This document shows positions 10,736 through 58,549 of a DNA stretch of 64,000 nt, piece by piece. The position numbers and the translations under genes were made by a program. Source of the DNA: a virus (taxonomy: Duplodnaviria; Heunggongvirae; Uroviricota; Caudoviricetes); the IMG/VR virus record IMGVR_UViG_3300032236_001858; one strand, 5' to 3'. Numbering within the stretch: position 1 is the stretch's first letter; each line of letters opens with the position of its first letter. The notes beneath the pieces were generated by a model. It saw only the letters and a program-made list of their open reading frames with translations. It was not told where the DNA came from and ran no database searches.

Positions 10736-10924
10736 ATGCTAGAAATTAAAGTAGAAGGTGTTGGTATTGAAAAAGCCTTAAAAACACTTAAAAGAAAATT
10801 TGACAAAACTAAAACTCTTAGACAATTAAGAGATAGAAAAGAATTTGTTAAAAAATCAGTTAAAAGAAGAGCTGAAATAAACAAAGCTAAATATGTTCAA
10901 GAAAAGTTTGGTAACAACGATTAA
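10736..10924 (+). CDS. rpsU: ribosomal protein bS21 homologue
   Basis: 62 aa and basic. IKVEG..EKALKTLKRKFDKTKTLRQLRDRKEFVKKSVKRRAE aligns with bacterial S21 (IKVREN...ALRRFKR...R.REFYEKP..RKR). Confidence 0.65.
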   Translation: MLEIKVEGVGIEKALKTLKRKFDKTKTLRQLRDRKEFVKKSVKRRAEINKAKYVQEKFGNND

Positions 10925-28265: not shown

Positions 28266-28883
28266 ATGATAAAAGTTGGACTTTCTGGTAATAGATATTC
28301 AGGTACTGATGAAATATGTAGTATATTTAGGCAGTATTCAATTCCTGTTTTTGAAGTCGATACTATATTGAAATTTATCATAAACCATGATATAACGGTT
28401 AGTTCTGATATTCGTTCAAAATTAAAATCTATTCATAATGGCGCTGGTTATATTGACCCAAGGTTGATAAGAACAAAGACAGAGGCTGAGGCTGTTATTA
28501 ACTCTGCTAAACATGAATTGATGTCAGCTTATAATAAATTTTCTGAAAAACATAGACAATCAATTTATACAATATTTCATTCATCTATACTATTTGAAAC
28601 AGGTTGGCAAAAAGAAATGAATTTTAATATAAATGTTTTTTGTCCAAAATCAACAAGAATAGAAAGGTGTAAACAAAATTTAAAAATTCCTATTTCAAGT
28701 GCAGCTGATTTGCTAAGAAATGAAATTGATGATTTGGATAAAAATAAAATGGCTAACTTTGTAATTCATAATTACAAAGGAAATAAAAGCCATTTAGATC
28801 AAGTTAATAAAATTGACCAGTATATAATTGATGAGTATTTAGATAGAAAACATAAAAATACTATTATTGAAACACACTTTTAA
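28266..28883 (+). CDS. hypothetical protein (degenerate dephospho-CoA-kinase-like N-terminus)
   Basis: MIKVGLSGNRYSGTDE resembles the start of a P-loop kinase, but the GK[ST] residues are missing. Confidence 0.35.
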   Translation: MIKVGLSGNRYSGTDEICSIFRQYSIPVFEVDTILKFIINHDITVSSDIRSKLKSIHNGAGYIDPRLIRTKTEAEAVINSAKHELMSAYNKFSEKHRQSIYTIFHSSILFETGWQKEMNFNINVFCPKSTRIERCKQNLKIPISSAADLLRNEIDDLDKNKMANFVIHNYKGNKSHLDQVNKIDQYIIDEYLDRKHKNTIIETHF

Positions 28884-28887
28884 ACTT

Positions 28888-29370
28888 ATGGTCCTAAGCA
28901 AAGCGTTGAAAACTATTAAAATAAAGTTAGTCGAACCAACTCCAAATAAGTTAGCTTTTGTCAAATTGATAAAAGATTGCAGTGGCCTTGGTTTAAGAGA
29001 GGCAAAAGATTTATGTGATAATATACATGGTAATCCTGAAAAAGTACATGAGATGCCTATTCGTGACTGGGAAAGCATGGATTATAATACCGGTAAAACA
29101 ACACCTGCAATTACTGATTTTAGAAAAAAGTTCAACACTGAGATTAAAAATGTTGGTGGTAGATTTATTGTTAATGGTGGTGTTCAATGGGATAGAAATG
29201 TAAAAATGTTGACACTTGGGATAGCTGAAAAATCTGATTATATCGAATTTATGAAAGATTATATTTTAAATAAATTTGGTAATTCAGAAGATTTACTTAC
29301 CTTTGTACTCGATAAAATTTCTAAAGAAGATTTACAAGAAATTTTTAATAAAACTAATATAGAATTATAA
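28888..29370 (+). CDS. protein with ribosomal bL12 (L7/L12) C-terminal-domain-like N-terminus
   Basis: KTIKIKLVEPTPNKLAFVKLIKDCSGLGLREAKDL matches the bL12 C-terminal-domain core ([23 protein letters not shown]). The ORF-track start is a TTG at 28867, and the first ATG is at 28888. Confidence 0.5.
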   Translation: MVLSKALKTIKIKLVEPTPNKLAFVKLIKDCSGLGLREAKDLCDNIHGNPEKVHEMPIRDWESMDYNTGKTTPAITDFRKKFNTEIKNVGGRFIVNGGVQWDRNVKMLTLGIAEKSDYIEFMKDYILNKFGNSEDLLTFVLDKISKEDLQEIFNKTNIEL

Positions 29371-33815: not shown

Positions 33816-34526
33816 ATGTATAACAAGATATATGACTTTTGTAAGGTAAGAAATCTTGGTAGTGTTTACTCAAATGGAGATGAACCTACACCAAGAGTTA
33901 AGTTCATTACTGGTTTACTAGAATCAGAAGGAATTGACTATGAATTAGATATATTTAAGTCAAGAAATCTTTCTTGTTATAATGTTATTATGAAGGGCAA
34001 TTCAACTAAAATGGTTGTTGCTCATCATGATATTAGCAACCCTAATATTGATAATGCTAATGATAACTCAGCATCTGTTATCAATGCTATTATGATTAAG
34101 AAGTTAATGCCTCATATGAACGTAGTTCTTTTAGATGGTGAAGAATGTGGCGGTTTAGGATCTCAAAGAGTCTCAGATCAAATCAATGAAGGTTACTTTG
34201 GCAAAATTGACTGGGTTCTTAATTTAGAATTGACTGGTCGTGGTGGTGATACCTTTTTCATCGGTGATTATAGAGGTGTATTATTTGACCATATTAAATC
34301 AATGTTTGATTGTGTAGTTTACAAAACTCCATTTAATGATTCTGTAGTATTCAGAAAAAATGGAATAGATTCATGTGTGATTAATCCTTTACCGACTTTA
34401 ACTAACGGAAATATGGATTATTCTATGTTATATAATTGTCATAATCAAAAGGATACATTATCAACAATCGATGTTAATGATATGCGTATTTTTGTTGAAA
34501 AAGTTTTATGTAAAATACTACAATAA
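33816..34526 (+). CDS. M28/M20-like zinc-exopeptidase-fold protein
   Basis: VVAHHD ... NDNSAS ... LLDGEECGGLGS resembles the HxD...DD...EE metal-ligand order, with the Asp-Asp pair substituted. Confidence 0.35.
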   Translation: MYNKIYDFCKVRNLGSVYSNGDEPTPRVKFITGLLESEGIDYELDIFKSRNLSCYNVIMKGNSTKMVVAHHDISNPNIDNANDNSASVINAIMIKKLMPHMNVVLLDGEECGGLGSQRVSDQINEGYFGKIDWVLNLELTGRGGDTFFIGDYRGVLFDHIKSMFDCVVYKTPFNDSVVFRKNGIDSCVINPLPTLTNGNMDYSMLYNCHNQKDTLSTIDVNDMRIFVEKVLCKILQ

Positions 34527-35198
34527 CTTCCAACTCCAAAAATATCCATAACTTTTTTTAATATCACCATTACAACATTTTCTTATACATGCCCTATTGA
34601 ATCCTAATTCTCTTTCAATACTACCAGTTGATATCCACTCTTTAATTAGGTTTTTATTAATATCATATTGATAAACACTTTTTTTATTTTGTTGAGACAA
34701 TGATAGTTTTATTTTAGTTTCATCACTTCTTTTTACTCTAAGTTTATTTTTAGTCTCTTCAGTTTGTTTTTTTCTACTAAATTTTTCTTTAAGATGTCCT
34801 TGTAGAATATCTTTTTCATCTTTGTATTTCCAAACATATCCTCCAGATGTTTTATATTTACCACTAGCAGCATTGCCTATGTTGATAATACCAGTTGATG
34901 AAATAGCCTCTTTTATCGAATTAAACTCACATATTAAAATATTATCCTTAAATTGCATGACAGGCTTAGACATTAGTTCGATTCTTTCTTTACTCTTATC
35001 TTTTCTACCCTCACCACCATCTGTTAAATTAACTAATGGACCAAGTTTCATATCTCTTCTACCTATTTCATTTATTACGAGAGATTCTAATTCAAAAGCT
35101 TTTTTCTCATCTAGCTTCTCATAAACTTTTATTATAATTGGATATTTTAATTTAAAATATGATGGATATGATGAAGGTGACGTGCCTGATAGATTCAA
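34518..35198 (-). mobile_element. freestanding GIY-YIG homing endonuclease with NUMOD3 repeats
   Basis: The ...NLTDGGEG end of a GIY-YIG domain is followed by repeated ETKNKL / ETKIKLS NUMOD3-type DNA-binding motifs. Confidence 0.55.
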
Positions 35199-35221: not shown

Positions 35222-35256
35222 AAAAAAAACCTCAGATTTCTCTGAGGTTTTTTCTT
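35222..35256. terminator. bidirectional rho-independent terminator
   Basis: Hairpin AACCTCAGATTTCTCTGAGGTT between an A8 run and a T6 run. Confidence 0.6.
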
Positions 35257-35270
35257 TCTGTAAAAATCTA

Positions 35271-36368
35271 TTAACCAATAGTTAAGAAGATTTTACGAGA
35301 CATTCTATCCACTGATAAAACTTTCACTTTAATTGCTTGACCAGCACTGAATTTTCTACCAAGTTTCTCCATTTCTGAAGTGTGGATAAGACCAACTGTC
35401 TCATCATCAAGGTTTACTAAAGTACCAAATGCTTTGGTGTCTTTAACGGTACCTTCAATGATTTGACCGTTTTTGATGTTGTCCCAAAGAGTTTCTCTCA
35501 AGATTTGAGTCAAGATAATTTTATCTTTAATCACTTCTTTGATATAGAACTCAATTTGGAATCCTGGTTGGATTTGAGTTAATTTCTCAGCCCATTCTGG
35601 ATTAACGTTTGCCTTGTGAATCATTCCTGTAAGACATTCGTTGAACTCTACGAACACACCAAATGGTGTAGTTCCTGTAACGTGACCGTTATAGATTTTG
35701 TTGTATTCCAGTTGTTTAACAGCATCTGGGATAAGTGTTTGAAGATACTTACGTCTTGAAACGATATAAGTTCCTTCACTCTTTGAGTAAGATTCAATCA
35801 TTACATTGAATGTTTCACCTACTATTGACATAGGGTCGTGAAGTTTGTTGATTCCGGCTAAAGTATTTGGCATAAATCCTGGAAGTGTAACACCACCGTG
35901 ATTTAATTCAACATCATAACCAGCTGGGTTAAGACTCTTAACAGTAACCATAACTGATTCACCTTCAACAAGAGATTTAAGGTTAGCGTGAGCTCTTGAT
36001 TCATAAAGAGAAGCAACGCTTCCTTTAATCATAAAAGCGTCTTGGTTTACTTCAGTTATCAAAACATCAATAGCATCACCAATGTTTAAGTTTTTGAAGT
36101 ATTTAGATTCACTAACTCGGTTATCCACTCTAACGTCATCTTTGTATCCTACTACACTGAATACATATTGGTCTGCTGACATGCCAATATATTTAGCGGA
36201 TACTACTTGATTTTCCTCAGGGATATTGATTACATCAAGGTTATAAAGTTTAATCATTTCTTGATACTCTTTTGTGCTTCTATTGCGAGTACCTTTTCGA
36301 GTAAATACTGATTCATCAAAGATGTCCAATAATTCCTCATTTCCAATTGTGTTGTTATTCATATTCAT
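35271..36368 (-). CDS. multi-S1-domain RNA-binding protein (ribosomal bS1-like)
   Basis: At least three S1-like OB-fold modules, for example GHVTGTTPFGVFVEF...GMIHKANV and IEGTVKDTKAFGTLVNL...GLIHTSEM...AIKVKVLSVDRMSRKIFLT. Confidence 0.55.
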   Translation of the reverse strand: MNMNNNTIGNEELLDIFDESVFTRKGTRNRSTKEYQEMIKLYNLDVINIPEENQVVSAKYIGMSADQYVFSVVGYKDDVRVDNRVSESKYFKNLNIGDAIDVLITEVNQDAFMIKGSVASLYESRAHANLKSLVEGESVMVTVKSLNPAGYDVELNHGGVTLPGFMPNTLAGINKLHDPMSIVGETFNVMIESYSKSEGTYIVSRRKYLQTLIPDAVKQLEYNKIYNGHVTGTTPFGVFVEFNECLTGMIHKANVNPEWAEKLTQIQPGFQIEFYIKEVIKDKIILTQILRETLWDNIKNGQIIEGTVKDTKAFGTLVNLDDETVGLIHTSEMEKLGRKFSAGQAIKVKVLSVDRMSRKIFLTIG

Positions 36369-36426
36369 ATTTTTTAGAGTTACAAAGTAATATATTCAAA
36401 TCGACTTTAATAGTTTAGAAAAAAAA

Positions 36427-36834
36427 TTAATATCTTTTAATATTATTTCTATTCATATAGTCACGAACTCTTGCCGCTTCTTCATACTTCTCTTTTCTGA
36501 TTAAGTCGTCAAGCTTTTTGTTTAATTCCTTAGTGACTTCTTCTATTCCTTTTTGCTTAGAAAGTTGTTGAATATCATCAATAAAAGAATTATAAAAATT
36601 TTCCATTTGAGAGATGTCTACAAAGTAGACAGGTACTGGAACAGGTAAGAGTTTTTGTTCAGAAGATTTTTCATCTTCATTTAACTCTTTTAATCTATCA
36701 CTGTTTTTAATTTTTCTAATAAACTCATCAGTAAGTGCTGAATTTTCAACCAGATACTTAGCTAAGTGATAAGGTCTATTTTTGAACATTTTGAGTAGAA
36801 TAACTAAACTACGATATAATTCCTCATTTTCCAT
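36427..36834 (-). CDS. small protein with C-terminal UVR-like motif
   Basis: KYEEAARVRDYMNR resembles the UvrB/UvrC/McsA UVR motif. Confidence 0.3.
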   Translation of the reverse strand: MENEELYRSLVILLKMFKNRPYHLAKYLVENSALTDEFIRKIKNSDRLKELNEDEKSSEQKLLPVPVPVYFVDISQMENFYNSFIDDIQQLSKQKGIEEVTKELNKKLDDLIRKEKYEEAARVRDYMNRNNIKRY

Positions 36835-36864
36835 ACAACTTTTATGTAGGAAATGGTAACTTGT

Positions 36865-37554
36865 TTAGATCCTTTCGAAGAAAATATTAAAGTAATAATC
36901 AAAGTTATATTGAGATGATGACTTCTCTTGACTGAAGTAAACTTTTATTTGAGAATCATCATATGCCAAATCCTTTTGAATTTTTGTTAGTAAGTTAGAA
37001 TTTGATATGATATTTGGATTCCAAGTATTTACATATCTTAATACATTTTGATTCATTAAGTCTTTATAAGAAAGATATAAATCTATTCTACTAAACTTAT
37101 ATTTATTTAACACATTATTAGATATGTATTCTTTTAAAGCAGTATTTACATCATTATTCTTTGTTATTGAGTTACTAACTCCTTCAAAACTTCTATATCT
37201 TTTCATAATAGCAAATAAGTAATCGGATAAAATCGATTTTAAGTCAATATTTAATATCCATTTAGTATTGCCATCTTTTTGGTAGGATAATTGAGACGGA
37301 TCAATCGTGATTGTTTGATGACTTTTCATATTATCCGATGCAGAATAAACTTGTGTTGGTAAAGATGACTCAATTGATAAATCTAATTGCTCACCTGTAG
37401 CTTTTTGATAATAGATAATATTTTGATTTGAAATATAAATACTATCTTCAATATACAACATTTTAGCACTAAAGAAGTTACTTTCTTCAACCATGTTATA
37501 AGTTCCGTATATTGACGAATTAATGAATTCTGGTGATATGTAATTTCTTCTCAT
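36865..37554 (-). CDS. hypothetical structural-module protein
   Basis: 229-aa ORF upstream of the large structural genes. Confidence 0.45.
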   Translation of the reverse strand: MRRNYISPEFINSSIYGTYNMVEESNFFSAKMLYIEDSIYISNQNIIYYQKATGEQLDLSIESSLPTQVYSASDNMKSHQTITIDPSQLSYQKDGNTKWILNIDLKSILSDYLFAIMKRYRSFEGVSNSITKNNDVNTALKEYISNNVLNKYKFSRIDLYLSYKDLMNQNVLRYVNTWNPNIISNSNLLTKIQKDLAYDDSQIKVYFSQEKSSSQYNFDYYFNIFFERI

Positions 37555-37555
37555 G

Positions 37556-40500
37556 TTATAAACTTATATTTTTAATTGGTGTTTGAATACCTCTTAAACC
37601 AACATCTTGTATAAGTGTTGATTTAGATTCTAATGATGTGGCAACAGAAGGGTTATTAGCTGTTAAATAATGATAGTTCAAATCCCAAGTTGACTTAAAT
37701 ATAAATGAGTCTAATATAGTATAACCAAACTCATCAAGCATAGGATAAATTGACTTTTCACTAGTTACATTATTTAATTTAAGAACTGAGTTAACATGAT
37801 TTATTTTTCTTACCTTTCTTTCCTTTACAATACCGAATTCAGTTAAAGTTGTATCAAATTTATAATTGCTTAAAACCTGATATTGTGTTGATGTTGGTTC
37901 TTTAGGTGATTCAAATAATTGTATATCATAAAAAATAGGCATATAAAAACCACTAAATCTATAAATAACATCTTGTGTTATGTTAACATTGCCATTATAA
38001 TTAGCAATTGGCTCTGGAACATCATTATTAGGTATTATCTCAGCCGCAACAGATACATTGTTATAATAATTTAAATTACTCAAATCAGCCGCAATGGATG
38101 TTAAAACTTTAGAAGCTTTAAGTTGTTTAGGTGTGTCTATAGCATTTGTTGTAATAGAATTGTGTTTCATCATAACTTCATCCGGTGTTTCACAAATTAT
38201 ATAGTGAGGCAATCCTTGAATATTGTCATAATTATATCTTTTAATACTACCATCTTCTCCTATTATTATATAATTGATAAAATCAGTAAATCCATACTTA
38301 TTTGATAAATCATTTATACTTTGAATAAAATTATGAGCTGTTAGCTTTTTATTTAATTCATTGTATAAGGTATCTCTATCAACATTGCTTAAATTTGGAA
38401 CCGTATTGTCAGATATATTTACATTGATAAGAATATTCTTCCACATTTTATTTATGTAGATATTAATACCGTTTTCCAATGTTGAGTTAGATGTATTACT
38501 ATTTATCATATAGTATGAGTTATTCATCTCAATTATTGGATTTGTTGTTGAGTTATAGACAATAGAAGTATCTGGTAGTAAACTATATTGTCTTGTCCAA
38601 TCTTTTGAAACGCCTGGTTCGTTACCCGCCATTGAAGATGTACAATAGTAAACTACTTCGTTATGAACAATATATGTATTTGTGTATGAAACACTAGGAT
38701 TCCAAATACTTATAGTTGACCATTTTGGACTATTTGATTGAGTTGCTACCCAGTAGTAACTACCTGTGTTGTCATATACAACTGTGCCTTCTAATTGACT
38801 TCTAAGTGGGTTATAAGATGTTGTTATATTATAAGGTTGTTGATAATCTGGTCTATGATGGTTTGATGAAGTCATAGACATATAATATTGACCTTTGAAT
38901 AAAACAGTTGAACCATAAGAATATCCGGGTGTATCAGATTGTGTTGGACTCCAGAAATCATCCGTACCACCAACATAGTAATAATAATCACCATGATTAT
39001 AAACTATATCATTGTTAAAACCAACTCCAGATCCTGGGTAAGTACCTATTGGACTCCAAAAAACTGACTTACCACTTACTGTTGTGTATGGTAACCAACC
39101 AACTTGATTATATGGTGCAGATATTACTCTTTTCATTGATGTGTAATCCTTACTAGGAACTGTAACAATATTATTGATTATCGTAGATTGATATAAAATA
39201 TCATCTTTAACTACAATGTCTCCAAGATTGTATGTTTTGTCCATTTTCCAGTTATCAAAAATAGTCCAACTCATTTGGTTTTGTGATTGAGTTAAAGCAC
39301 CAATGTTGTTACCAAGTGGTGAATCAATAACTGACCAGTCATTATCTGATAATAATATAGAAAACTTATACCCATCAAATGTATTTGATGTTTTTAGGTT
39401 CAACATACTTATTTTACCAGTTTGGTCTTTTTTAATATCATCAATATCATAGATTAAAAACTTAATACCTTTGAAAACCGACATATTTGGTATAGAAGTA
39501 TCTCCTGTGTTGAATAAAGAATACTTTTTAACATTTTTAGATACTTTATAGTTATCAAAATTAGCTGTTCTATTAAAGAAATAAGAAAAATAATCAAAAC
39601 TATAAGTAGCAGAAGATCCAGTTGCTGTTGTATAAGTAGTTAAATTCAAATACTTATCAAGTTCAAAGTTAAATGATGTGTCTATACCAGACGATGTTTG
39701 ATTCTCAACATGTAAAGTATGATGTATATAAGATGATGTTGAAGAATTAATAGTATAGAAATAGTCTAAATTTCTTTCAATTCTTCGTGTGTCGGGATCG
39801 AAAGGATTAGCCGTTCTATTGTAATCTTCAAACATCAAAGAGTTATTCAATAAATAAGGAACATCATTTGCTGATAGTGAATTTTGAAATCCCCATCTAC
39901 AATAAGTAGCATTTTTTCTCCATATCTCAGAAAGACTACCGTTATCTATCTTAAATGTTTCATAATTAGCCGTATATTCAGATGATACAGGTATATTAAC
40001 TACTTCTGAGTTATATACAAAGTCATCATAATGCTTTGGAAAAGTGTTGCTATTTAAATTTGTAAGATACATCTTAGTCTCATCTGTGTTAGTTAAGCTG
40101 AACTTATTTTCATATTCATATTTAGAATATTCAGTATCAATAATTTTATCATCAAAGTCTTTAATATCCGTAAATTTAAGTTTATAAATATTAAACTTTT
40201 TAGGTGGATTATTAGCATCAACAACAAAGCTTACTTTTTTAGTATAGCTAGGATCATTTTTATTAATCCAATATTGATAATCATTTTGATTAACCTTAAA
40301 AGAATAATCTGTATTGATTCTAATTCTTGTTGTAACGGTTTTAACCCCATTAACTAATTCTGGACCAGTTTCTCTAACTAAATTATGTAAAACGCCATCA
40401 ATTTCAATTAACCAAATATCAGCAGAATCCCACTCATCAAATAAGTAGTTACTATTATCATAGTTTAATAATCTATTAGGATATATTGAGTCATCAGCAC

Positions 40501-41668
40501 CTATAGTACCAAAACCTTTGTTTAACATAGATTGTTTACCAGATAAATCAATATCCGATATAATTCTATACTTATTAGTTACTTTATCTGTATATTGTTG
40601 AGTAACAACATTTCCAGTTTTAACTGGTTGTAAAACATTTGGTGTTGTTTGAGTGAACATTTCTACCTTATAATATTCTCCATTATATTCTACATAATAA
40701 ATCTTATTATCTAAGAATCCTTCTACAAATGGGTCACCTGATGGTGAATATAATATATTACCTGGTTGAATAACAGCATCTGATTTAATAAATGGTGTGA
40801 TATAAGGTGAAATAGCTTTTACCTTAACCATATCTTCTAAATAAAAACCATAATATCTATTAATAGACCATTTTCTAATAGAATCAGAATCAGCAGGCAT
40901 GTCGTTAAAAAGAAAAGACATATTGATTATATTAGGGAAAACAACTTTGTGGTTTTTATAACCATCAAAAACGAATTTTTCAAATTCGTATATTTCTTTT
41001 TCGTTTTCATAAACTGACTCTAAAAATTGAGACTTACTTATATAACCACCTGTTTCATAATCTATACCATTCCATTTAGTAAACTCTAAGTTTTGAAAAC
41101 TCATTTCAAATGGAGTTAAAGGAAAAAAAGAATTATTATTGAAATTTAAATCCAACCATTCACCTAACACGCTATTTTTAGTTAAATCAAATACCTTAAC
41201 CGTTTTGAATTTATTAAGTATGTTAGATTTAAAATTATCTTTAGTAACTGATTCAATGCCTGTTCCATCTACTCTAAAAATAATAAACTTCTTAGGTAAA
41301 TTATTTGGTGAAATATAAAGTGGAGAAAAATATTCAAATTCTTCTTGATAGTTTTTATTATCAGATATATTTCTAGCACCATACTGATAAAGTTCATCAT
41401 ATTGAGCAGAATAATCTTTACTCATAGAATCAACATCATTATCATACTTTATGTAAAAAGCTGTATCAGCTGGTAAGCCATCATAAAAATAAGTTACTAA
41501 TTCATCATAGTAATTCTTTTTAATAAAATCAACTTTTTTGAATTTAGTATTTGACAGCTCTTCTTTTGATTCAATACTATCAAGTGATAAATTATAGCTA
41601 CTATCCACCATTATTTTGATGTTAGTAGTTAATCCGACATTAGTTCTTAATATAGCAAAGCTCTTCAA
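37556..41668 (-). CDS. very large structural protein (baseplate or tail-fibre)
   Basis: 1370 aa, Asn/Ser/Tyr-rich, located in the minus-strand structural operon. Confidence 0.6.
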   Translation of the reverse strand: MKSFAILRTNVGLTTNIKIMVDSSYNLSLDSIESKEELSNTKFKKVDFIKKNYYDELVTYFYDGLPADTAFYIKYDNDVDSMSKDYSAQYDELYQYGARNISDNKNYQEEFEYFSPLYISPNNLPKKFIIFRVDGTGIESVTKDNFKSNILNKFKTVKVFDLTKNSVLGEWLDLNFNNNSFFPLTPFEMSFQNLEFTKWNGIDYETGGYISKSQFLESVYENEKEIYEFEKFVFDGYKNHKVVFPNIINMSFLFNDMPADSDSIRKWSINRYYGFYLEDMVKVKAISPYITPFIKSDAVIQPGNILYSPSGDPFVEGFLDNKIYYVEYNGEYYKVEMFTQTTPNVLQPVKTGNVVTQQYTDKVTNKYRIISDIDLSGKQSMLNKGFGTIGADDSIYPNRLLNYDNSNYLFDEWDSADIWLIEIDGVLHNLVRETGPELVNGVKTVTTRIRINTDYSFKVNQNDYQYWINKNDPSYTKKVSFVVDANNPPKKFNIYKLKFTDIKDFDDKIIDTEYSKYEYENKFSLTNTDETKMYLTNLNSNTFPKHYDDFVYNSEVVNIPVSSEYTANYETFKIDNGSLSEIWRKNATYCRWGFQNSLSANDVPYLLNNSLMFEDYNRTANPFDPDTRRIERNLDYFYTINSSTSSYIHHTLHVENQTSSGIDTSFNFELDKYLNLTTYTTATGSSATYSFDYFSYFFNRTANFDNYKVSKNVKKYSLFNTGDTSIPNMSVFKGIKFLIYDIDDIKKDQTGKISMLNLKTSNTFDGYKFSILLSDNDWSVIDSPLGNNIGALTQSQNQMSWTIFDNWKMDKTYNLGDIVVKDDILYQSTIINNIVTVPSKDYTSMKRVISAPYNQVGWLPYTTVSGKSVFWSPIGTYPGSGVGFNNDIVYNHGDYYYYVGGTDDFWSPTQSDTPGYSYGSTVLFKGQYYMSMTSSNHHRPDYQQPYNITTSYNPLRSQLEGTVVYDNTGSYYWVATQSNSPKWSTISIWNPSVSYTNTYIVHNEVVYYCTSSMAGNEPGVSKDWTRQYSLLPDTSIVYNSTTNPIIEMNNSYYMINSNTSNSTLENGINIYINKMWKNILINVNISDNTVPNLSNVDRDTLYNELNKKLTAHNFIQSINDLSNKYGFTDFINYIIIGEDGSIKRYNYDNIQGLPHYIICETPDEVMMKHNSITTNAIDTPKQLKASKVLTSIAADLSNLNYYNNVSVAAEIIPNNDVPEPIANYNGNVNITQDVIYRFSGFYMPIFYDIQLFESPKEPTSTQYQVLSNYKFDTTLTEFGIVKERKVRKINHVNSVLKLNNVTSEKSIYPMLDEFGYTILDSFIFKSTWDLNYHYLTANNPSVATSLESKSTLIQDVGLRGIQTPIKNISL

Positions 41669-41683
41669 TTTTTAAAAATTATT

Positions 41684-44600
41684 TTATCTGATAGAAGTGT
41701 TAATTGCATTAGTTACTTTTCTAACGATTACTTTACTTCTATTTATATTAAACTTGATACTGAATACAAATGGTCTGTTTTCTGCCTCATTTTCTAAGAA
41801 GAATTTAACCTTCTTAACATGTTGTACCGTCTGTCTAGATGAATTTAGATTAATGTATTTATAGTTTAATCCACTTTGATTATTGTCTAAAGAATTCATT
41901 TTGAAGTAAATATTCAAAGGAATAACGGTAGAATTAGCATCACCAGTATCAATTGTTTTTATTTTATCTGAGTTTGTTTCTACAATTGTTTCTAAGTTAT
42001 GAACAACTGGATGTATAGTTGTTAATAATTTAGCCGTAGATGATACAGAAACATTCGTATCTATCCACTTTGAAGGATCTAATAAAGATTTATTATTACC
42101 AACAAATGATAAAATAGCTGTTTCATTAAATCCTACATTATATTCATTAGAAGATAAAACATTAGTAATAGAGTTTGATGCGTTTGTTGTAAATAAATTT
42201 CCTACATTTTCTGTTAACTTAGTAACAGATGTGTCTAAAACAGAATCATAATTTATCATCCAAACATATTGGTTATCTAATTGTGTTCTGGTTTGACCTG
42301 AAATATCTGAAGTTATTAACTCATCGTGGTCATTAACCCAGAATGTTTGAGGAACACCTGTGTTATAAACACTTGGGTTTTGTAAATAAGTTCTATTAGA
42401 AAGTAATCCTAATGGAGAACTTGTTGACTTATTTCTAATCTTAACAACATAGTCTTTAATAACATAGATATTATTAGCATAAACTCTACCAGTTGGTATT
42501 CCAGAACCAGTATATGGATCAAGATAATCTTCACACTCAACATTAAATGTTGTTTCACTTCCATTAGCAACTGCAAACTCTTGGTTATTTCTAAGAATAA
42601 CAACTTCAAGTTCACCTTTAACCATTTTAATTTTCTCTTCAAGAGTAGCAATTCTATCTTGTAAGGATTTTAAGTAAGTAAATAAGTCTAAAGCAACACC
42701 ATTGGCATCCTTAAATCCAGATAATATCTTAGTTGCATCATGATGAAAAGTAACATTATTTACAACAATAGTATCTGATAAGTGATCATCTAAACCTTTA
42801 GCTGATAACTCTTGATTTACCTTAACTTTTAAGTCTTCAGATGTTGCTGCTTGTAATATAAAGTCATTTTCATTTAAAACATTATTTAAATCATTTGGAA
42901 ACTCAATAGTTAAAATATCAGACCAATCTGATTCTACTGGAGACTCAGGCCAACCTACTTCAGATATAGATTTAATTCTAACATCTATTTTTTCATTAGC
43001 TTGAATATCTAAGTCTAATTGGTTAATATTAGGAGTATCAGCACTTTCAATATTTTGGATCTCCCAAGTATATTCACCAGTACCTTGATTATAAACTCTT
43101 TTTCTAGCATCTGTTTTAAATTCATTCCAGTTAGAGAATGCTGCTTTTGTTTGAGTATTATCAACTGCAAATGTTTCAACTGGTGGTTCAGTACCATCTT
43201 TACTTAAATATCTATATTGAACTCTAAATTGAACAATCTCTTGTGGTCTTGTACCTCTTGTAACAACAGCAGACGGTATAGTCCAGAAACCTCTAATTCT
43301 AAACTTAGGTTGTACCTTTGTTTGAGGACTATTTGATAACTGAATAATTTCTTGAGTTGTAGTAGCAAGTAATTTAGACTTACTATCTTTTTTTCTTGTA
43401 AGCTCTTCAATTTCAAGATTTGCTTGTTTTTTATCAGATTCAGATTTGAATTTGACAAATTTAGCTTTAGCATTTTTATCAACAATAGCATCAGAAATTT
43501 GTTGTATCTCAGATTGTAACGTAAGATGATAATTATGCTTTTGTTTAATTAAATTAGAATCAGGAGTATCTGTTAAGTGTTTATTAATTTGAACAACTTT
43601 AAAGTTAGCCGAATTCAATGTTGGTGCAACTGGTGTGCCAGCTAAAGAATTAGGAGTCTTTTTGGCAACCAAGTCTTTCAATACCGTACCATAGTCATAT
43701 ACATAGTCTGTATAGAATTGCTCCATTGTAAGACCATTTTGAGGTGATGTTGAATCTAATGTTAAATCATTAGTCCAATATCCTGTACCTAAGCTCCAAT
43801 TTCTTGCCAATAGATTAACATCGGCATTTAATGGTTTAATAAAAACTACATTTCTCTCGTTATAACCAACACTTACTTTTACTGTTTTAGTGTAAAGAAC
43901 TGGTGAGTAAATTTTAAGAGTTCCAATTCCAACAGGAATTGCTTCAACACCTTCAACTCTTTCAAATCTAACTCTTGGGCTAGATTCTGCAGTAGATACT
44001 TCAATTACTTTATATCTTGTTGAAGTTTGAGCTGAATTAATAATAACTTCACTACCAACAGATAATTGAGCTGTTTGATTGGATGCTCTAACTAAATATG
44101 TTAAAGTATCTAAAACATACCAAAGTTTTCTATTAATTCTATCTTCTTGAATTCTAAGAACTGAAAACTGACCATCATATAACAAATCTTGAGGGTCTAA
44201 ATCAAATACTTGCTCATCAAATTGAGGATTAGTAGGATAAAGAACACCTGGTGTTGTACTATGCCAGTTTTCAAAATCAGTTATAACAATTGAAGAATTA
44301 CCTCTAAATAAAGTATTAAAGCTATTCAAAGCTGATTGTCCAAGTGCTGTTAAGTTACCTGAAGCATCAGTTGCAAAATCTACAATGTATCTTCTACTTA
44401 AAACCTTTCTTACATTATCTTCTACTTTTCCAGTTAGATCTAATTCAATAGAAACAATTGGACTCATAAGTCCATCAAAAAACCAATTATTAACCGCCTT
44501 AAATTTAGTAAGTGTACCAAGTGTTCCGACAGCATTTGGTTCTCTATTTAAGTCAACTGTAATTATTTTTTTATATTTATTCTGGCTTGATGTTGATATC

Positions 44601-44851
44601 ATCGAACCAGCAGTATCAATACTATAAAGTGAATTGATGTTGTTATTCAATCTATCTATATCAGCTTTTAATGAACTGAAAGAAGGAACTGCAAAATTTC
44701 TTAAAACTCCATTTTCATCATAAATTTGAATATTTACAGATGGGTCTTGCGTTGTTGTTAAAGTATTAATCTGACCTAGTATTTCTATAATATTTTTATT
44801 AGAGGAAATGACCTGGTCAGCTACCGTCGGAAATGAACTTTGAATTGGCAT
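41684..44851 (-). CDS. large structural protein (baseplate or tail-fibre)
   Basis: 1055 aa. A TTAATATATAAG motif lies about 17-34 nt upstream. Confidence 0.6.
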   Translation of the reverse strand: MPIQSSFPTVADQVISSNKNIIEILGQINTLTTTQDPSVNIQIYDENGVLRNFAVPSFSSLKADIDRLNNNINSLYSIDTAGSMISTSSQNKYKKIITVDLNREPNAVGTLGTLTKFKAVNNWFFDGLMSPIVSIELDLTGKVEDNVRKVLSRRYIVDFATDASGNLTALGQSALNSFNTLFRGNSSIVITDFENWHSTTPGVLYPTNPQFDEQVFDLDPQDLLYDGQFSVLRIQEDRINRKLWYVLDTLTYLVRASNQTAQLSVGSEVIINSAQTSTRYKVIEVSTAESSPRVRFERVEGVEAIPVGIGTLKIYSPVLYTKTVKVSVGYNERNVVFIKPLNADVNLLARNWSLGTGYWTNDLTLDSTSPQNGLTMEQFYTDYVYDYGTVLKDLVAKKTPNSLAGTPVAPTLNSANFKVVQINKHLTDTPDSNLIKQKHNYHLTLQSEIQQISDAIVDKNAKAKFVKFKSESDKKQANLEIEELTRKKDSKSKLLATTTQEIIQLSNSPQTKVQPKFRIRGFWTIPSAVVTRGTRPQEIVQFRVQYRYLSKDGTEPPVETFAVDNTQTKAAFSNWNEFKTDARKRVYNQGTGEYTWEIQNIESADTPNINQLDLDIQANEKIDVRIKSISEVGWPESPVESDWSDILTIEFPNDLNNVLNENDFILQAATSEDLKVKVNQELSAKGLDDHLSDTIVVNNVTFHHDATKILSGFKDANGVALDLFTYLKSLQDRIATLEEKIKMVKGELEVVILRNNQEFAVANGSETTFNVECEDYLDPYTGSGIPTGRVYANNIYVIKDYVVKIRNKSTSSPLGLLSNRTYLQNPSVYNTGVPQTFWVNDHDELITSDISGQTRTQLDNQYVWMINYDSVLDTSVTKLTENVGNLFTTNASNSITNVLSSNEYNVGFNETAILSFVGNNKSLLDPSKWIDTNVSVSSTAKLLTTIHPVVHNLETIVETNSDKIKTIDTGDANSTVIPLNIYFKMNSLDNNQSGLNYKYINLNSSRQTVQHVKKVKFFLENEAENRPFVFSIKFNINRSKVIVRKVTNAINTSIR

Positions 44852-44871: not shown

Positions 44872-44887
44872 CTTATATATTAAATTC
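44872..44887 (-). promoter_or_regulatory. putative late promoter (TTAATATATAAG)
   Basis: Recurrent motif oriented toward the ATG at 44851. Confidence 0.4.
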
Positions 44888-51401: not shown

Positions 51402-51976
51402 TGAAAGATATTGGTTACCTTTTTGACCTATTGAAAAAATCTAACATATCTCTATTGGGATATAAATTTAATCAAGAAAGGCTTAAAGATGAGATTATTT
51501 CAAAACTACCTCACTTGGTGGTTCATGAAATAAACTCGTCTTTTTCTTTTAAATCTTTTTTAAGAGATTTGAAACTTCAATCAATTTTAGAAACTAGTGA
51601 GACTATAAAAAATCCAGAGTATCTTGTTTTAGATTTGAATGATATTAGATTTAAATCAGATGATTTAGGTGATAGACAAAGACAAATATCTAATATTCTA
51701 AATAGGCTTAGAGAAGATATGTACTCTGGTTCTGATGTGCCTTATAAACTTTTGATACTCACCTCACTATACAGTAGTGGAAAGAACGTCGATGATGTTA
51801 ATATTACAAATTTTTCTGGCGGTAGCAAACCAATCTTTATGAGTGACGTAGTATTTGTAATGCAAGAAGAATCAATGAAAGTAATAAAGAATAGATTTGA
51901 TGAAAACAACATTGATATTTCTTACAATAAATTAAAAGATTATAACTATATTTGCAACTATGAAAATAACAACTAA
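51401..51976 (+). CDS. hypothetical protein
   Basis: 191-aa ORF between trx and smpB. Confidence 0.45.
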   Translation: MKDIGYLFDLLKKSNISLLGYKFNQERLKDEIISKLPHLVVHEINSSFSFKSFLRDLKLQSILETSETIKNPEYLVLDLNDIRFKSDDLGDRQRQISNILNRLREDMYSGSDVPYKLLILTSLYSSGKNVDDVNITNFSGGSKPIFMSDVVFVMQEESMKVIKNRFDENNIDISYNKLKDYNYICNYENNN

Positions 51977-52406
51977 CAAAAAAGCTTATTACGAATACTT
52001 TGTCATTGAAGACTTTGATGCTGGTATTATGCTTTTAGGAAGTGAAGTAAAGTCAATCAGAGAAGGTAACTTGAGTTTAATTGATTGTTTTGCTTACATT
52101 TCAGATGGTGAACTTTGGTTAAAAAATATGAAAGTGGCTCGATATAAACAAGTCCATGTTGCTGAAAAACATGAAGAAAATCGAGACAAAAAATTACTTC
52201 TCAATAGAAAAGAAATAAATAAAATTGAAAAGTTACTTCAAGATAATGGAACAACTATGGTTCCTTTAGAAGTATTCACAGCACATAATCGAATTAAAGT
52301 TAAGATTGGTGTTGTTAAAGGTAAGAAGCTATATGATAAAAGATCCACTATTAAAGAGAGAGATATAAAAAGAGAGATAAACAGAGAAAGTAATTTTAAT
52401 ATATAA
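51960..52406 (+). CDS. smpB: SsrA-binding protein SmpB
   Basis: KKAYYEYFVIEDFDAGIMLLGSEVKSIREG ... RDKKLLLNRKEI ... KIGVVKGKKLYDKRSTIKERD aligns along the full length with bacterial SmpB. Confidence 0.8.
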   Translation: MKITTNKKAYYEYFVIEDFDAGIMLLGSEVKSIREGNLSLIDCFAYISDGELWLKNMKVARYKQVHVAEKHEENRDKKLLLNRKEINKIEKLLQDNGTTMVPLEVFTAHNRIKVKIGVVKGKKLYDKRSTIKERDIKREINRESNFNI

Positions 52407-58394: not shown

Positions 58395-58466
58395 GGAGAC
58401 TTAGCTGAGACGGTTTAGCGTTTGGTTGAAGCCCAAAAGAGGTCGGTTCGATTCCGGCAGTCTCCA
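58395..58466 (+). tRNA. tRNA-Phe(GAA), canonical
   Basis: Acceptor GGAGACT/AGTCTCC, D arm GCTG..TAGC, anticodon stem TTTGG/CCAAA with loop TTGAAGC, T arm GTCGG-TTCGATT-CCGGC. Confidence 0.6.
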
Positions 58467-58472
58467 CAACAT

Positions 58473-58543
58473 ACGTCATACAGACAAGGTGTCGGTCAGG
58501 TCTCCAAAACCTCGACGGTGGGGTTCGATTCCTCAATGGCGTG
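58473..58543 (+). tRNA. tRNA-like, Trp anticodon CCA, atypical short D arm (71 nt)
   Basis: Acceptor ACGTCAT/ATGGCGT (one G-U pair). Anticodon stem CAGGT/ACCTC (one mismatch) with loop CTCCAAA. T arm TGGGG-TTCGATT-CCTCA. Confidence 0.35.
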
Positions 58544-58549
58544 CTAAAT

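Follow-up and report, generated by a model that had tools for sequence, protein, structure and literature searches.

A four-domain homologue of ribosomal protein bS1 in a huge-phage DNA fragment and its candidate role in selecting phage messages

S1 is a doubtful case among viral ribosomal proteins because the S1 domain occurs in many unrelated proteins, and for this reason Mizuno et al. 2019 left S1-domain matches aside. Al-Shayeb et al. 2020 (PMC7162821) describe "possible rpS1" proteins in huge phages and state that true rpS1 proteins of these phages are hard to confirm. The Microcystis jumbo phage PhiMa05 encodes a bS1 that is proposed to replace the host bS1; its ribosomal protein genes lie moderately close together and were apparently gained recently from a Vampirovibrio-like host (PMC13157829). 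On the cellular side, Escherichia coli rpsA lacking domains 5-6 is viable, its product binds the 30S subunit with RNA binding barely changed, and domains 1-3 form the minimal functional unit (Duval et al. 2013, PMC3858243). Here we analyze an S1-domain gene at positions 35271-36368, minus strand, of a 64,000-nucleotide stretch of Caudoviricetes DNA (IMG/VR record IMGVR_UViG_3300032236_001858; the whole stretch is denoted the window). The gene encodes a homologue of bS1 domains 1-4 (D1-D4), and we propose, at a probability of roughly 0.55, that the product acts on the ribosome as a mini-bS1 favouring phage mRNAs.

Compared with cellular bS1 (E. coli RpsA, 557 amino acids; Bacteroidales RpsA, ~600 amino acids), D1-D4 of the phage protein are colinear, D1 and D2 belong to the type specific to bS1, and equivalents of Lys43, Phe120 and Phe130 as well as a candidate acidic/aromatic N-terminal helix motif are present. 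It differs from cellular bS1 in that D5, D6 and the C-terminal tail are missing, identity is 23-27% and Leu takes the position of Phe5. The E. coli D5-6 deletion has the same D1-D4 architecture and, since this deletion is viable, a four-domain architecture is known to work (PMC3858243); however, it is an engineered host truncation, slow-growing and cold-sensitive, whereas the phage protein is a naturally evolved, highly divergent lineage. The "possible rpS1" of huge phages (PMC7162821) belongs to the same gene family as the window gene, and the orthologue in LR756502 carries the deposited annotation "RNA binding S1 domain protein" at coordinates that match our tblastn match. Unlike the bS1 of PhiMa05, also phage-encoded, the window protein is a member of an old, diversified family of viral contigs, and its gene does not adjoin other ribosomal protein genes. 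The short S1 proteins of Firmicutes and Cyanobacteria (PRK06676, 391 positions) are similar in length and domain count, residues 48-364 aligning with positions 14-347, but the phage protein has the D1 Lys and the candidate N-terminal helix motif, and its score on this model is 91 bits (cutoff 368). CvfB/SP_0946 is likewise a tandem S1 protein (Foldseek match 3go5, E=4.8e-11), from which the phage protein differs in having no winged-helix domain.

The original prediction of a 365-amino-acid protein encoded on the minus strand agrees with the sequence: the frame is open without interruption from an ATG start. Residue 3 is a Met conserved among relatives, hence the true start could be either M1 or M3. 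The Pfam S1 family (PF00575) matched the protein with E=6.6e-22 and 78 bits (cutoff 22), only two stretches being individually significant, both within the last two domains and the best at residues 299-364. Genuine bS1 behaves likewise, its domains 1 and 2 being degenerate and typically below Pfam detection. An AlphaFold2 model computed from an alignment of 23 relatives (mean pLDDT, the predicted local confidence score, 77) contains four five-stranded oligonucleotide-binding (OB) barrels at residues 55-117, 138-204, 225-287 and 303-364, connected by helical linkers. The count of tandem S1 modules, given earlier as at least three, is thus four. In a Foldseek search of this model against PDB the four top matches were all bS1 chains, the best being 9gut_B (E=8.6e-22, 365 alignment columns), and the best structural matches are ribosome-bound bS1. 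The Pfam scan of the 365 residues detected S1-type domains only, with no catalytic or other accessory domain, so that the protein has the form seen in bS1, a tandem array of four to six S1/OB domains without a catalytic domain. Together the open reading frame (ORF), Pfam, NCBIfam, AlphaFold2 and Foldseek data define 35271..36368 (minus strand) as the coding sequence of a four-domain bS1 homologue.

All parts of the protein lie on the minus strand. The N-terminal acidic/aromatic helix, a candidate uS2-docking element recognized from a low-confidence model helix and by inspection, covers residues 9-22 (GNEELLDIFDESVF; 36303..36344). Domain 1, a D1-type OB domain of bS1 with an invariant G74-Y75-K76, spans residues 51-122 (36003..36218), and domain 2, of the D2 type with the invariant motif LPGFMPNTLAGINKL, spans residues 131-212 (35733..35978); both are assigned by domain profiles that score best on the cellular counterpart. 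Domain 3 (residues 219-293; 35490..35714) and domain 4 (residues 296-365, up to the protein end; 35274..35483) match Pfam S1 as canonical RNA-binding domains. Their residues F236, F239 and H251 in D3 and F314, H329, D354 and R358 in D4, which we take to be the canonical S1 RNA-binding residues, are all invariant in close relatives.

The S1 fold is common to many proteins, and we therefore asked whether the domains are arranged as in bS1. The protein is matched by eleven NCBIfam bS1 models, nine of them as a single colinear stretch starting at model positions 12-27; residues 29-364 align colinearly with positions 27-373 of the 580-position PRK06299.1-2. TIGR00717 scored 95.7 bits (cutoff 577), the cutoffs of the bS1 models ranging from 368 to 918 overall. 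Residues 1-212 alone, searched against PDB with phmmer, retrieved bS1 chains and nothing else credible, the sole other match being a glycoside hydrolase at E=0.38; here residues 92-210 correspond to E. coli bS1 58-175, that is, the end of domain 1 and domain 2. When the protein was compared directly with E. coli bS1 by BLASTP, two near-equal alignments resulted, one in register and one domain-shifted, and because of this ambiguity profile comparisons were adopted.

One profile per phage domain, built from 114 family members, was scored on each of the six domains, taken separately, of E. coli RpsA and of Parabacteroides RpsA. The D1 profile scored best on cellular D1 (24.8 and 38.0 bits in E. 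coli and Parabacteroides, respectively; other domains at most 16.5), and the D2 profile on cellular D2 (50.3 and 54.8 bits; other domains at most 21.9). The D3 profile scored best on D4 of E. coli (44.0 bits) and D5 of Parabacteroides (38.9 bits), its own D3 giving 22.1 and 25.7 bits, and the D4 profile scored best on cellular D3-D5 (50-62 bits), with 37-38 bits on D6. The matrix and the phmmer search thus place two degenerate domains of the bS1-specific type, D1 and D2, in that order, and by their profile scores D3 and D4 behave like generic RNA-binding S1 domains. The profile of the family over its full length aligned its positions 31-371 colinearly with E. coli bS1 13-349, and aligned the same region in eight other cellular bS1 proteins, with scores of 160-186 bits. 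In every alignment the phage protein stops at the D4/D5 boundary, domains 5 and 6 of the six-domain Gram-negative form being absent. Because the profiles are colinear, the domain matrix is in register and the protein ends where D5 would start, it is best described from its sequence as a truncated homologue of bS1 domains 1-4, not as a full bS1.

Other S1 proteins fitted less well. NCBIfam models of PNPase (55 bits, cutoff 471), RNase R (33 bits, cutoff 598) and GSP13 (71 bits, cutoff 148) each matched a single S1 domain, as did the IF2-alpha models. For CvfB, the Pfam family CvfB_2nd reached 21.4 bits, below its cutoff of 27, the winged-helix domain is missing and bS1 chains score far better. 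No match was obtained to the type in which S1 is joined to a catalytic or accessory domain (PNPase, RNase E/G, RNase R, Tex, NusA, CvfB, GSP13), the protein having no additional domain, and no PHROGs family covers it. The predicted resemblance to ribosomal bS1 is therefore borne out by the D1/D2 register and by the colinear NCBIfam, profile and Foldseek matches, and domains of the cold-shock, PNPase or RNase E type without bS1 organisation, which had been named as the outcome that would speak against it, are not what was found.

E. coli bS1 is anchored on the ribosome mainly through its N-terminal helix, where Phe5 and Phe9 stack on Phe32 of uS2; in domain 1, Lys43 of the beta2-beta3 loop inserts into the zinc pocket of uS2, and in domain 2, Phe120 and Phe130 form the OB2 mRNA pocket (PMC4288201, PMC10123108). 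Lys43 corresponds to K76 of the phage protein in both MAFFT and profile alignments, and in the profile alignment Phe130 corresponds to F165 and Phe120 to Y151. None of K76, Y151 and F165 varies among 23 relatives with 67-89% identity to the window protein. Domain 2 carries a 4-residue insertion relative to cellular bS1 in the same profile alignment.

The model places a short helix at residues 11-17 inside the low-confidence N-terminal tail. By inspection only, the N-terminal sequence GNEELLDIFDES resembles TESFAQLFEES of E. coli. F17, the counterpart of Phe9 in this comparison, is invariant in close relatives and lies in an IFDES context like the E. coli LFEES, and L13, at the Phe5 position, is conserved in at least 90% of them. 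The signature F-[DNS]-W-[DE] occurs close to the N-terminus in 17 of 113 full-length proteins, each representing one 50%-identity cluster. The same signature (EDFNWDAFE and close variants) is present in 108 of 110 sampled Bacteroidales bS1 proteins and in four of seven Bacteroidia rpsA loci taken from genomes, the other three having incomplete or missing N-termini. Because 17 carriers were found where a rough estimate of the chance expectation is ~0.3, the signature points to a probable descent of the family from a Bacteroidota-type bS1. Another 33 of the 113 fit a looser E. coli-like pattern (a hydrophobic residue, two to three residues, then Phe and acidic residues), some of them perhaps by chance.

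To place the family we searched phage genomes, viral contigs and cellular genomes. The top phage matches in tblastn were LR756502 (642 kb) at 67.5% identity and LR745206 (634 kb) at 65%, followed by LR756501/3 (735 kb) at 44% and LR756504 (636 kb) at 41%, all of them complete uncultured genomes; Lak megaphages matched part of the S1 protein at 30-33%. The LR genomes belong to the Mahaphage clade, for which PMC7162821 predicts Bacteroidetes as the hosts of all five genomes larger than 634 kb. By these similarities the window comes from a Mahaphage-type huge phage. The IMG/VR scan, which was based on an alignment of closer relatives, yielded relatives on 129 contigs, the largest of 597 kb and one relative at 88% identity. 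Separately, the family comprises 129 clusters at 50% identity (E<1e-30), whose full-length members are almost all 340-450 amino acids long. We define the family as proteins of ~340-420 amino acids with at least 40% identity, encoded on a large viral contig after a block of four genes (p1055, p1370, p229 and a UVR-motif protein), and by identity, large viral contigs and synteny the window protein belongs to this huge-phage four-domain S1 family.

Nearly all known members of the family reside on viral contigs. A search of 185,579 species genomes (one per species) gave two close matches only, on metagenome-assembled contigs of 1.8 kb and 43 kb, the other full-length matches being cellular bS1 at 23-27% identity. 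The gene is under purifying selection, with a ratio of nonsynonymous to synonymous substitution rates (dN/dS) of 0.12-0.15 against two relatives in which dS is unsaturated. Mean identity across relatives is 23-26% in the N-terminal tail, 47% in D1, 67% in D2, 72% in D3 and 63% in D4.

The gene is preceded by a 58-nucleotide A/T-rich leader (36369..36426, minus strand) that, by sequence and by a survey of Shine-Dalgarno (SD) sites, has no SD sequence and ahead of the ATG reads "aactctaaaaaat". This is common in the window: an SD four-base core at -20 to -4 was found in 2 of 60 ATG-started genes, compared with 5.6% of random windows, and leader positions -20 to -9 are 45-68% A and ~5% G. The scarcity of SD sites matches the link between possible rpS1 genes and missing SD sequences in huge phages reported in PMC7162821. 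It also matches the known behaviour of Bacteroidia ribosomes, which sequester the anti-SD and ignore the SD, and for which a supplement of bS1 raised initiation on an mRNA without SD twofold (PMC9976891).

We suggest the following mechanism. The N-terminal helix and D1, with Lys76, would attach to uS2 of the host 30S subunit, on the side where the mRNA exits, and the docked phage protein would there replace, supplement or compete with the six-domain bS1 of the host. D2 would then be positioned beside the mRNA exit channel, and D3 and D4 would capture A-rich, SD-less phage leaders and pass them to the decoding site. Initiation would thus be biased to phage messages, possibly jointly with the bS21 encoded by the phage. 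The homology to bS1, the domain register, the conservation of contact residues, the restriction to phages, the purifying selection and the absent SD use are the basis on which this mechanism is given a probability slightly above one half.

Several observations weigh against it. The top NCBIfam bS1 score, 116 bits, stays far below the equivalog cutoff of 624, and the scores on all other bS1 models likewise fall far short of their cutoffs. In the profile alignment E. coli D39 corresponds to S71 and F79 to A111 (with F112 adjacent), so that these two residues have no identical counterparts. The Phe5 position holds a non-aromatic residue, Leu13, while F5A in E. coli bS1 abolishes binding (PMC4288201). 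The match of the N-terminal helix was made by eye, the segment being unaligned in the profile alignment and residues 1-28 having a pLDDT below 50. Scores of the family profile on Bacteroidia bS1 (172-186 bits) and proteobacterial bS1 (160-175 bits) do not separate the two origins. Finally, the gene closes a block of large proteins, away from translation genes, and a non-ribosomal partner fits this position equally well.

This position favours an off-ribosome role, which we consider possible though rather unlikely. The protein would then be an RNA-binding subunit or chaperone in which D1-D2 act as adaptor for a phage partner and D3-D4 bind RNA for processing, protection, packaging or regulation; T4 RegB, which uses bS1 as a cofactor, is a model for it. 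S1 closes a conserved block of five genes, shared with a UVR-motif protein and three proteins of unassigned function, in ~47 of 78 loci, the Phe5 equivalent is non-aromatic, and the uS2-binding surface of bS1 is known to serve another partner, as Q-beta replicase grips D1-D2 by the same surface as uS2, D39 and K43 included (PMC4288201). However, the residues that are kept, K76, Y151 and F165, are those of the uS2 and exit-channel mRNA contacts, and distant members retain the exact N-terminal signature of Bacteroidales bS1, which is hard to explain with a phage partner. Pfam, PHROGs and PDB sequence searches of the neighbours identified no such partner either.

The same docking determinants could also serve to block the ribosome, an idea to which we give somewhat less credit than to an off-ribosome role: the protein would take the uS2 site, evict host bS1 and, without domains 5-6, support only some mRNAs, acting mainly in host shut-off. 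The absence of these domains fits, and truncated E. coli S1 still binds the ribosome with mRNA recruitment perturbed (PMC3858243). A plug would not need D3 and D4, yet both are highly conserved with canonical RNA-binding residues, and the E. coli D1-D4 allele supports growth, indicating that the architecture is functional rather than inhibitory. That the gene is a decaying or incidental, functionless fragment of a host rpsA is highly improbable. In favour of it are a length below that of cellular bS1 and scores under the curated cutoffs, but the dN/dS is low, the full-length proteins of over 100 divergent clusters keep a length of 340-450 amino acids, synteny is conserved, and the low identity to any cellular bS1 found argues against a recent capture. 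These conservation data effectively refute a functionless relic. The mini-bS1 reading keeps the highest probability that we assign.

A more far-reaching reading, to which we give about one chance in four, is that the protein is a phage-lineage-specific, ancient paralogue of a ribosomal protein rather than a borrowed host gene. Acting with the phage bS21, it would remodel the mRNA-exit platform of Bacteroidota ribosomes and so create ribosomes specialised for phage leaders. Because S1 ends a block of very large proteins, perhaps virion proteins, its synthesis might even be late, and the protein might enter the cell with the virion and take over translation at once.

The block consists of five same-strand genes (upstream part 36427..44851, minus strand): p1055 (41684-44851; phrog_29329, no assigned function), p1370 (37556-41668), p229 (36865-37554), the UVR-motif protein of 135 amino acids (36427-36834) and S1. 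The order p1055-p1370-p229-UVR-S1 is found in ~47 of the 78 related loci on viral contigs, including those whose S1 is as little as 40% identical, and in distant relatives p1055 is more conserved than S1 (52-56% versus 40-43% identity). The four upstream genes have no recognisable function in Pfam, PHROGs and PDB sequence searches, and for this reason the label "structural operon" that had been attached to them is a guess, the large proteins matching no recognisable family. On the other side of S1, an ORF at 34518-35198 (minus strand), 72 nucleotides from the S1 stop, had been described as a GIY-YIG endonuclease; it matches NUMOD1 and PHROG homing families ("HNH endonuclease", "intron encoded nuclease"), and Pfam and PHROGs detected no GIY-YIG catalytic domain in it. 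It sits between the S1 terminator and an M28 peptidase gene and, since it is missing from all 78 related loci, is probably a recent, possibly degenerate insertion.

A terminator scan located an intrinsic, bidirectional terminator (35222..35255, minus strand), a hairpin with a T-run whose stem has 15 pairs on the minus and 13 on the plus strand, 16 nucleotides past the S1 stop codon. In the S1 leader we noticed TTGTAACT (36378-36385), common to a subset of relatives: a motif of this type, GTAAC[TC] followed by an A-run, lies at -14 to -24 in 12 of 45 distinct upstream regions. The upstream regions of relatives also share a TAAACTTT-like sequence, by eye ~45-60 nucleotides before the ATG. Neither motif is enriched in the window, and for this reason they may represent a gene-specific promoter or operator. 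A different motif, TTAATATATA, occurs at 23 sites in the window, mostly 10-35 nucleotides upstream of an ATG on the coding strand (for example 3933(-), 6281(+), 15348(-), 23973(-), 44881(-), 57114(-) and 58659(+)). Its core AATATATA is in modest excess (26 copies versus 17.4 +/- 4.8 expected) and the placement is striking; the motif probably acts as a phage promoter element, from which very short leaders would result. The copy at 44881 precedes p1055 and, together with the terminator at 35222-35255, suggests that the p1055-to-S1 block may be one transcription unit; before S1 itself the motif is not conserved in relatives. Sigma-70-type promoters are not enriched in the window (60 found, 73.5 expected), and by eye only an imperfect TAcTTTG was seen upstream of S1 for the Bacteroidetes-type TAnnTTTG.

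Further translation-related genes are present in the window, three ribosome-derived modules having been proposed in total. Those for S1 and bS21 are firm. The bS21 homologue (62 amino acids; 10736-10924, plus strand; PF01165, 44.5 bits) is related to a protein that contacts OB1 of bS1 on the E. coli 30S platform (PMC10123108). Its Tyr53, in the C-terminal KAKYVQ, is one position off Tyr54 of Bacteroidia bS21, as a comparison of positions without alignment; Tyr54 is uniquely conserved in Bacteroidia bS21 and holds the anti-SD tail (McNutt et al., PMC9976891). If the two are equivalent, Tyr53 supports a Bacteroidia host. The bL12-like ORF (28867-29370, plus strand) is a weak candidate for a ribosomal-protein derivative, because it matches only positions 2-37 of the 67-position L7/L12 C-terminal-domain profile near the cutoff (28.4 bits, cutoff 25.9) and starts at a TTG overlapping the preceding gene.

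A full-length SmpB (51960-52406, plus strand; PF01668, 176 bits), a YqeY-like protein and 12 tRNAs were also found. Despite SmpB, ARAGORN and Rfam detected no tmRNA gene in the 64-kb window, and apart from tRNAs Rfam found nothing, neither introns nor leader elements. Among the tRNAs, three that have lysine anticodons (UUU, UUU and CUU; 59383-59470, 59478-59562 and 59566-59649, plus strand) are 84-88 nucleotides long with a long variable arm, normally a feature of the Leu, Ser and Tyr tRNA body type. They were called by both ARAGORN and Rfam (53-65 bits), have the anticodon loop cTTTTAa and follow an ordinary 74-nucleotide tRNA-Lys(UUU) at 59303-59376. The mechanically called ORFs 58426-58689 and 61259-61705 (plus strand) lie in this G+C-richer tRNA region, where they run into tRNA genes, and are unlikely to be genuine.

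Phage S1-like proteins were already known from huge phages (2020, PMC7162821) and from PhiMa05 (2026), and an orthologue is annotated in published genomes. The gain made here is incremental, since the phenomenon has been published; the literature covered did not contain the evidence for a bS1 D1-4 homologue with conserved uS2-contact residues, for the near-confinement to viral contigs and for the conserved block. Real viral ribosomal proteins bear on how far viruses reprogramme translation. The bS1-specific docking domains and the uS2-contact lysine turn a vague annotation into a testable idea, namely that huge phages of bacteria without SD recognition may swap the mRNA-loading protein of the host ribosome.

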